This document shows, piece by piece, positions 33,024 through 33,934 of a DNA stretch of 64,000 nt. The notes beneath the pieces are model-generated. The model did not search any database. It was not told the DNA's origin and worked only from the letters and a program-made list of their open reading frames with translations. The stretch's first letter is position 1. Each line of letters opens with the position of its first letter. Source of the stretch: Escherichia coli (GTDB lineage: Bacteria; Pseudomonadota; Gammaproteobacteria; Enterobacterales; Enterobacteriaceae); the NCBI RefSeq assembly GCF_046105845.1, contig NZ_CP151004.1; one strand, written 5' to 3'. The translations under genes and the position numbers were made by a program.

Positions 33024-33934
33024 TAAATAAATGGCAATTTTTACAAAGAGATAATAACGTAGATTGAAACAATATGTATTATTGATTGATTAAACGGGAT
33101 TATTTTTTACACTACAACCATTTTGCTGCCACTACCAAAGAAAAAGGGGCTACGCTTTCACGTAACCCCTTGATTTATTTGGTGGGCTGGCGGTGTCTGA
33201 ATTGGTGCTGTAATGGGTTGAAATATTTCATCTAATGTCTGGTTCAACTTTCCTTAGCTGCCTGAAAGTTTTTTTGATATTACCCATCAATAATAGGGTT
33301 ACGGTGTACCATGCCTGACTGATGAACTGCGTGCTCAGAGTTACCACTTCAGCGCATAACCGTGGCAGCAGACCCGGACAGAGCAAACGGCTCAGGACAT
33401 TATCGGTAGGGGACGTACTGGTAGTATGGAAACTGAACCGACTGGGGCGCAGTATGCGACATCTTGCCGTGCTGTTGGAGGAGCTGTGAGAACGTGGTAT
33501 TAACTTTCGTGCTCTGACTCTACCAATATTTGCCCAATAATGGGGGGACGAAAGCTGTAAAAGTAAAACAATCTGCAATCTCAATGTTATTGTGTGATTT
33601 TTATGTGAGCAGAAGATATTCATCAGAAACGATTATGTAAATCATTTTATTTTTCCGACGGCTTTAATGTCGAAAGAAAAGAATACGCCGTATTTCCTGA
33701 ATAGATTGACTTTTTTATCCAATCATCCTTCAGCACAATGTCTTAAAAAAATGCCTCATTCTTATGCGGAATATCATCATTTCATCATGATGTCTTTGAT
33801 GAGCGGTGAACACAATACACTTGCGCTGTCTCTTCAGGATGAATCCCCTGGTCTGGTGCCTGTGGGCTGATGTTGCAGCAAAGCTAAGGTCGCTTAAACG
33901 CTACTCAGTATTCACTTTTCAGAGGATGAAATTT

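Follow-up and report, generated by a model that had tools for sequence, protein, structure and literature searches.

The spacer between the stop codon of ypjCB and the ATG of ypjA (33935) in this Escherichia coli genome raises a simple question: is it eroded beyond recognition, or can its parts still be traced to known elements? We addressed this question within a 64,000-nucleotide stretch of contig NZ_CP151004.1, referred to here as the window, whose positions are used throughout; the gap between the two genes is exactly 33024 to 33934. Our analysis leads us to conclude, with high confidence, that the spacer is a fossil junction at the far end of a stack of islands at the tmRNA gene ssrA, together with the ypjA upstream region, and that it carries no recombinase function. 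As judged from its sequence, it is a patchwork of the pinH pseudogene, a piece of IS3, an ssrA-derived phage attachment (att) scar, and the ypjA upstream region. The initial annotation had found no convincing gene here and had called the DNA degenerate. Both descriptions hold: every identifiable piece is a truncated fragment, and base composition is mosaic, with GC contents from 22% to 53% between sub-segments. It had also proposed eroded remnants of ypjB and pinH, or of an invertase. The pinH/invertase part of this proposal is supported by matches to the Pfam family PF00239 and to PinE, and the ypjB part fails, as described below; the att scar (ssrA/Fels-2), the IS3 fragment, and the paralogous ypjA leader had been overlooked. 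The features that we recognize are collected in Table 1.

Table 1. Features of the ypjCB-ypjA spacer and its surroundings (window coordinates)
Feature	Coordinates	Strand	Evidence or remark
ypjCB, intact, 472 aa (left flank)	31605..33023	+	Pfam DUF5507 and DUF5508; PGAP name YpjCB
AT-rich segment (22% GC) downstream of ypjCB	33024..33117		Conserved with K-12
Spacer ORFs of at least 30 aa	33086-33235, 33322-33489, 33530-33640, 33667-33870	+	ORF list
Fels-2-type phage-borne ssrA terminator segment (term62)	33118..33178	-	Phage matches; terminator scan; fold z-scores
Terminator hairpin	33144-33171	-	Terminator scan
Relic of the last 15 nt of ssrA, CCGCCAGC-CCACCA, 14 nt	33179..33193	-	Alignment to the window's ssrA and 13P477T ssrA
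Putative distal arm of an old CP4-57-type ssrA island (core-proximal ~12 nt)	33194..33274	-	Match to the arm beside K-12 psaA
Spacer ORF, 131 aa	33228-33623	-	ORF list; antisense to the IS3 and pin fragments
IS3 left terminal inverted repeat (IRL)	33275..33296	+	18/22 matches to IS3 IRL
Internal IS3 transposase fragment (IS3 nt ~549-621, orfB N-terminal region)	33298..33370	+	82-90% to ET761 IS3
pinH pseudogene, internal Pin/Gin serine invertase fragment (PinE codons 39 to ~100)	33361..33551	+	tblastn, Pfam, alignment
5' part of the ypjA upstream region, paralogous to the ymgJ region	33552..33750	+	86-87% to the ymgJ/ycgI locus
Highly conserved block directly upstream of ypjA	33751..33934	+	5/184 variable columns among 7 alleles
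39-aa ORF annotated by PGAP	33751-33870	+	In the conserved block
ypjA, EhaD-type autotransporter, 3'-truncated by an IS3-family element (right flank)	33935..37780	+	K-12 ypjA homology ends at 37780
IS3-family element ORFs	37789-38835, 38655-39002	-	ORF list
Tail-fibre and tfa genes	39040-40187	+	Co-oriented with pin, ~5 kb right of the spacer

The left flank explains why no trace of ypjB was found in the spacer. Pfam assigns DUF5507 to residues 1 to 160 and DUF5508 to residues 218 to 472 of the upstream ORF, and PGAP names this gene YpjCB in the closest genome. In K-12 the gene is split into ypjC (DUF5507) and ypjB (DUF5508), so that these two names denote the halves of one gene. Because ypjB is the C-terminal part of the ypjC-like gene ypjCB, which is intact here, it does not lie in the spacer. 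Further to the left, ygaQ (27966 to 30218; 750 aa, alpha-amylase-like) is also intact in this genome; K-12, with its split ypjCB, has only a ygaQ pseudogene. A tRNA with a CAU anticodon at 30778 to 30853 is called Met by ARAGORN; its orthologue is ileY, tRNA-Ile(CAU), in K-12 and in PGAP.

From the ypjB stop to the ypjA start, K-12 has a collinear spacer, with three single-base indel columns in a three-way alignment; over a larger stretch, 32269 to 37780, identity to K-12 is ~94%. Among 5426 complete E. coli genomes, at least 3003 contain 80% or more of the spacer, the best match being strain E300010 (98.4%). Variation among seven alleles is distributed unevenly: the density of variable sites is 40% in the ssrA core (6 of 15 columns), 20% in IS3, and 17% in pin, falling to 1.7 to 4.7% in the ypjA-proximal parts. 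Two segments, 33024 to 33117 and 33194 to 33274, had no homologue in searches of phages and plasmids.

The most readily identified piece is a fragment of a serine invertase gene. When an invertase protein was searched against the interval by tblastn, a check that the initial annotation had proposed, e14 PinE residues 39 to 91 aligned to 33361 to 33519 with 75% amino acid identity (E 5e-21) and one in-frame stop. The Resolvase family (PF00239) matched the same frame over profile positions 42 to 102 of 145 (E 1.6e-12; 48 bits against a curated cutoff of 23.3 bits); this was the sole Pfam match when all spacer ORFs and the frame upstream of pin were scanned. Nucleotide alignment extends the homology to about 33545 to 33551, at Pro-Met-Gly codons near residue 100, and the fragment is 190 bp long. 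Its reading frame is interrupted by two lesions, a TGA at 33487 to 33489 in place of Arg81, where K-12 has TGC, and a 4-nt deletion behind 33518. The catalytic Ser9 is absent, as homology begins at PinE codon 39 and the sequence upstream is IS3. The C-terminal helix-turn-helix (HTH) is absent as well, as homology stops at about codon 100, the next base opens a ymgJ-type leader, and Pfam shows no HTH family. With only about 60 of ~185 codons, no Ser9, and no HTH, the fragment cannot be an enzyme. A search with the e14 pix arms, allowing up to five mismatches in 21 nt, found no pix-type crossover site in the whole window.

This fragment has a counterpart in K-12. K-12 annotates pinH (b2648) at the collinear position between ypjB and ypjA, and by our coordinate conversion b2648 corresponds to about 33357 to 33596. 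The comparison with K-12 pinH that had also been proposed thus gave a collinear spacer, b2648 at the same place, and matching flanking genes. In every strain inspected, PGAP labels the fragment "recombinase family protein, incomplete." Phage invertase genes match only the pin core, at no more than 80% nucleotide identity, and the nearest intact relatives share ~77 to 80%. We regard 33361 to 33551, on the strength of these alignments, as the orthologue of the K-12 pseudogene pinH (b2648); it is an already known fragment without recombinase function.

The 5' end of pin is missing because a stub of IS3 is fused to it at codon ~39 to 41. At the left inverted repeat, the K-12 allele is, in our reading of the alignments, identical to the first 18 nt of IS3 IRL. 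About 1000 plasmid IS3 copies, annotated as "IS3 ORF2" or IS3H transposase, match 33298 to 33370 at 80 to 90%. Neither orfA nor orfB is intact, IS3 nt ~549 to 621 alone surviving, and no right inverted repeat (IRR) with six or fewer mismatches was found in 33001 to 34000. The stub is thus an internally deleted IS3 copy, fused within its transposase gene to pin.

To the left of IS3 lies a scar of phage integration. Among the E. coli matches, 33118 to 33193 corresponds to the end of an annotated tmRNA gene. The real ssrA of the window is at 43039 to 43401, on the same (minus) strand as the scar, and no other ssrA fragment was found in the window. The relic lacks one base of the ssrA end (14/15 nt); it is a T-less variant, a 14-mer identical to that of K-12 psaA. 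The core is followed by 62 nt that contain a strong hairpin and a T-run on the minus strand, and the hairpin pairs perfectly on the ssrA-sense strand. The scar of core plus flank (77 bp) corresponds to Fels-2 nt 7 to 83 and so overlaps nt 1 to 23, which are annotated as "part of prophage attP." It also matches SopEPhi, RE2010, Cartapus, 500465-1, and Klebsiella and Yersinia P2-like phages (88 to 97% overall), with 95 to 97% identity to the att regions of Fels-2, SopEPhi, and Cartapus. ET761 and 13P477T have a P2-like prophage at ssrA, and in both strains the terminator sequence of the scar lies directly 3' of ssrA. We therein see the likely origin of the hairpin, as a terminator brought by a P2-family phage to replace the end of the tmRNA gene. 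Within 33125 to 33195, the ssrA core also pairs with GGTAGTGGCAGC, just after the terminator, and so adds an outer stem to either strand; the Fels-2-type att flank contains this sequence too. Outer stem and hairpin together have fold z-scores of about -5.3 and -5.9 on the two strands, and the hairpin may stop transcription on both strands.

Phage homology ends after the 15-nt core, and what adjoins the core resembles a different island. Compared on the sense strand, the arm reads "...CCAATTCAGACA + core" here and "...CCAATTCAGACT + psaA" in K-12, where psaA is attR of the CP4-57 element; the arm and the core of the scar are the same as there. The core-proximal ~12 nt match the K-12 psaA arm at 11 of 12 positions, and about 8 further nt match in part. 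Because these ~12 nt past the core match the CP4-57 attR arm, we read the scar as a junction with a different element. Its neighbors are ypjCB on one side and IS3/pin on the other; no phage genes (ogr or int) adjoin it, unlike in ET761 and Cartapus.

The remainder of the spacer belongs to ypjA. The segment from 33552 to 33905, which starts at the first base beyond the pin homology, has a paralogue near minCDE, the ymgJ/ycgI locus, with 86 to 87% identity. At that locus, strain ETEC4079 has an intact YpjA/EhaD-like autotransporter gene behind the paralogous sequence, and we therefore consider the ~380 bp upstream of ypjA to be part of a duplicated autotransporter cassette. An intact YmgJ frame of 61 codons is not found at the ypjA locus: the ymgJ-like frame (33605 to 33640) meets a stop after 11 codons in all seven ypjA-locus alleles but is intact in four ymgJ-locus alleles. 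Our search of the literature on pinH/ypjA and ymgJ found nothing relevant.

The last part of this region is exceptionally uniform. The rest of the spacer varies at 14.6% of columns, compared with 5 of 184 in 33751 to 33934, and this block is also where the duplicated cassette peaks in similarity, at 97 to 98% identity to the paralogue versus 87 to 90% at the start of the coding sequence. It includes the ypjA Shine-Dalgarno sequence, AGAGGA, at ~33921 to 33926. No sigma-70-like site was found on the plus strand of the block. Its predicted RNA folds no better than shuffles on either strand (z-scores, +0.8 and -0.4), so a structured leader RNA is not supported. A control region acting as DNA could account for the conservation, as could gene conversion between the two paralogous copies. 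On conservation, the last ~180 bp may act as a promoter/leader of ypjA; a functional control element common to both YpjA/EhaD-type cassettes, in the form of a cis leader/operator or a 39-aa leader peptide, is a tentative idea that we think somewhat doubtful. Just upstream, eight substitutions unique to this genome among 11 alleles and paralogues fall within 23 bp (33723 to 33745). By our comparison, seven of the eight turn this stretch into the sequence of a direct quasi-repeat 52 nt downstream (33775 to 33797), so that the cluster looks like a templated mutation, by template switch or short-patch conversion. A search of a genome contig collection with a 24-mer from the conserved block returned two E. 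coli-like contigs only and no Escherichia genome. These contigs, from Terrisporobacter mayombei (539 bp) and the uncultured Clostridiales UMGS1323, are 90% and 99.8% identical to E. coli loci and are probably contamination of nonenterobacterial assemblies.

To the right of ypjA, an IS3-family element (37789 to 39002) joins the 3'-truncated ypjA to a tail-fibre/tfa segment. This segment, 39040 to 43038, is the ssrA-proximal end of a prophage or remnant and is 99% identical in HS, 24AR0142, and other strains. The far side of the IS3-family element abuts the middle of a phage tail-fibre gene, and 37780 to 39040 looks like an IS-mediated deletion that fused two islands. The Rfam isrC model matches at full length (150 bits) at 38848 to 38970 on the minus strand, inside the 5' end of this element and over the orfA start; the "sRNA" model thus matches IS sequence. 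In strain HS, a different deletion, by IS1, removed ypjA and the spacer. What lies between ssrA and ypjA differs among strains: K-12 has CP4-57 there, E300010 an RM/SIR2 island, and both HS and this genome a prophage remnant. The ypjA-to-ypjCB block stays constant. Between tfa and ssrA, 40300 to 42856 contains four AT-rich ORFs on the minus strand (317, 64, 122, and 153 aa). The two that were scanned, of 317 and 153 aa, had no PHROG match; HS and other strains have the segment beside ssrA as well, with 99% conservation, and one of its ORFs is annotated there as DinI-like. At 42880 to 43038, ssrA is directly followed by ~110 bp that in K-12 follow psaA, and then by different terminators. Because ssrA directly adjoins these ~110 bp, CP4-57 is absent here, and 42880 to 43038 looks like an unoccupied CP4-57 site.

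Other accounts of the spacer can be weighed against a junction of two elements. The att scar and pin might stem from a single Fels-2/Cartapus-like phage, joined by an IS3-associated internal deletion of ~25 kb. Such phages carry both an ssrA-type attP and an invertase, IS3 sits exactly between the scar and pin, and Cartapus, 500465-1, and Kp4865-2 match both pieces on the strands seen in the window. The boundary of the scar, however, speaks for a site-specific junction with a different element, namely the CP4-57-type arm next to the core: a phage att site should carry the full ssrA-identical block (~43 to 47 bp), given the 43 bp common to ET761 attR and the 3' end of ssrA and the attP of ~47 bp implied for Fels-2 by its annotation, but identity here stops after 15 nt. 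Nor is pin closer to these phages (74 to 79%) than to e14 pinE (80.5%) at the nucleotide level, and we consider a single-phage origin unlikely. The initial annotation had instead tied eroded ypjB and pinH to the tail-fibre remnant beyond ypjA, which would place the invertase and the tail fibre at opposite ends of a single prophage, now decayed, whose fibre segment was invertible. The pin fragment is indeed real, the tail-fibre/tfa genes lie 5 kb to its right, and invertases normally adjoin tail-fibre genes, as in e14, the ET761 prophage, and Cartapus. Yet ypjB belongs to ypjCB, and K-12 and E300010 keep the same pinH fragment beside a complete ypjA that is followed by other islands, with no adjacent tail fibre. 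The fibre segment comes from another prophage, shared with HS and others and joined to ypjA by the IS; strand and order are also unlike the usual layout, pin being upstream of and co-oriented with fibre/tfa here as opposed to fibre-tfa-tfa'-fibre'-invertase in e14, Cartapus, and the ET761 prophage, and the crossover site was not found. The proposed link therefore does not hold, and such an origin is in our view very improbable; from these comparisons, the pin fragment and the tail-fibre remnant appear to belong to different elements.

It is even less probable that the spacer makes a product of its own, be it from the 131-aa ORF, from the 39-aa ORF, or as an antisense RNA that starts at ~33673/33641 and ends at the hairpin. 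The 131-aa antisense ORF is open in six of seven alleles, and minus-strand promoter-like sites (~33673/33641) and a minus-strand terminator bracket it. Its translation is Ser/Arg-rich, as the initial annotation had remarked, and Leu-rich as well (15 S, 14 R, and 19 L of 131 residues); it has no Pfam match, carries a frameshift in E300010, the closest relative, and differs strongly in amino acid sequence from allele to allele. It is the antisense frame of the GC-richer IS3/pin fragments. Promoter-like sites in the spacer number 3, versus 3.3 expected from shuffling. An Rfam scan of 30 to 40 kb gave nothing credible in the spacer, where the sole match was to BjrC68, over the hairpin and below threshold (21.6 bits against a 39-bit cutoff). 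The 39-aa ORF is annotated by PGAP and sits in the most conserved block, but one allele interrupts it with a premature stop and another begins it with GTG; the substitutions in the translated alleles are all nonsynonymous or nonsense, with no sign of coding constraint.

For the junction of two elements that we favor, the simplest reading is that everything from the scar junction rightward to ypjA (the 81-bp arm, IS3, pin, the leader, and ypjA) would be the distal end of a second island. A Fels-2-like (P2-family) phage would have integrated into ssrA, supplying its own copy of the ssrA 3' end and a terminator. A CP4-57-type element, carrying or later gaining ypjA, would then have entered ssrA and pushed the old junction away, leaving the order "island arm + 14-nt core + phage terminator" at 33118 to ~33213. 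An invertase gene inside this second island may next have been destroyed by IS3 and later deletions, which would have left IS3 nt 1 to ~20 and ~549 to 621 fused to pin codons 39 to ~100. The pin fragment would have come to lie directly against the ypjA cassette on its left side; the ~380 bp upstream of ypjA in this cassette have a second copy at ymgJ/ycgI. Newer strain-specific elements would later have integrated between ssrA and ypjA. Strain ET761 offers a live example of such nesting, with ssrA, a P2-like prophage, a second perfect core, and the next integrase in succession. The contiguous "empty" junction (ssrA, terminator, ypjCB) occurred in 0 of 5426 complete E. coli genomes; with neither a genome in this or an intermediate configuration nor an outgroup found, we infer the order of integrations from the junction sequences only. 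The hairpin and the last ~180 bp are probably the only parts that still work.

Collectively, these data account for the "empty" spacer as four truncated fragments and a promoter/leader region. The biological weight of this result is small, and we see it as a clean annotation result. Its main feature, the pinH pseudogene, is already known; the additional details, apparently unannotated, are refinements of the annotation, among them the fusion of pinH to a previously unannotated IS3 stub. The island stack at ssrA extends outward as far as a second, unannotated scar of the gene's 3' end, some 5.5 kb past K-12 psaA, and ypjA therefore lies within horizontally acquired DNA. The scar is also a small worked example of nested att relics from tandem integrations at the tmRNA gene, in which a phage-supplied terminator has been left stranded beside an unrelated gene.

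Each piece can be set beside the system from which it derives. The pin fragment shares its position, its truncated invertase core, and collinear DNA with K-12 pinH, but the lesions differ, and pin is the most diverged part of the spacer (82 to 88% identical to K-12). With the Pin/Gin/Hin/Cin invertases (e14 PinE, P2-like, and Mu-like) it has the Resolvase core in common, and it differs from them in its loss of most codons, in the missing Ser9 and HTH, and in having neither crossover sites nor an invertible segment. Of the 1258 bp of IS3, the stub retains about 95, made up of the left inverted repeat and 73 nt of transposase sequence; it has no right end or transposase ORF. The scar shares the 77-bp att flank and its terminator with the attP of Fels-2, SopEPhi, and Cartapus (Peduoviridae), and its 14-nt core and adjacent arm with K-12 psaA (CP4-57 attR); it differs from a Fels-2-type att in retaining 15 nt of the ~43- to 47-bp block, as a composite of two junctions that offers no usable att site. 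Finally, the ymgJ/ycgI (ycgH) locus has 350 bp of upstream region in common with ypjA, including the nearly identical central block, whereas the ymgJ frame is closed in the ypjA copy and the autotransporter of the ymgJ locus is itself a fragment in most strains.
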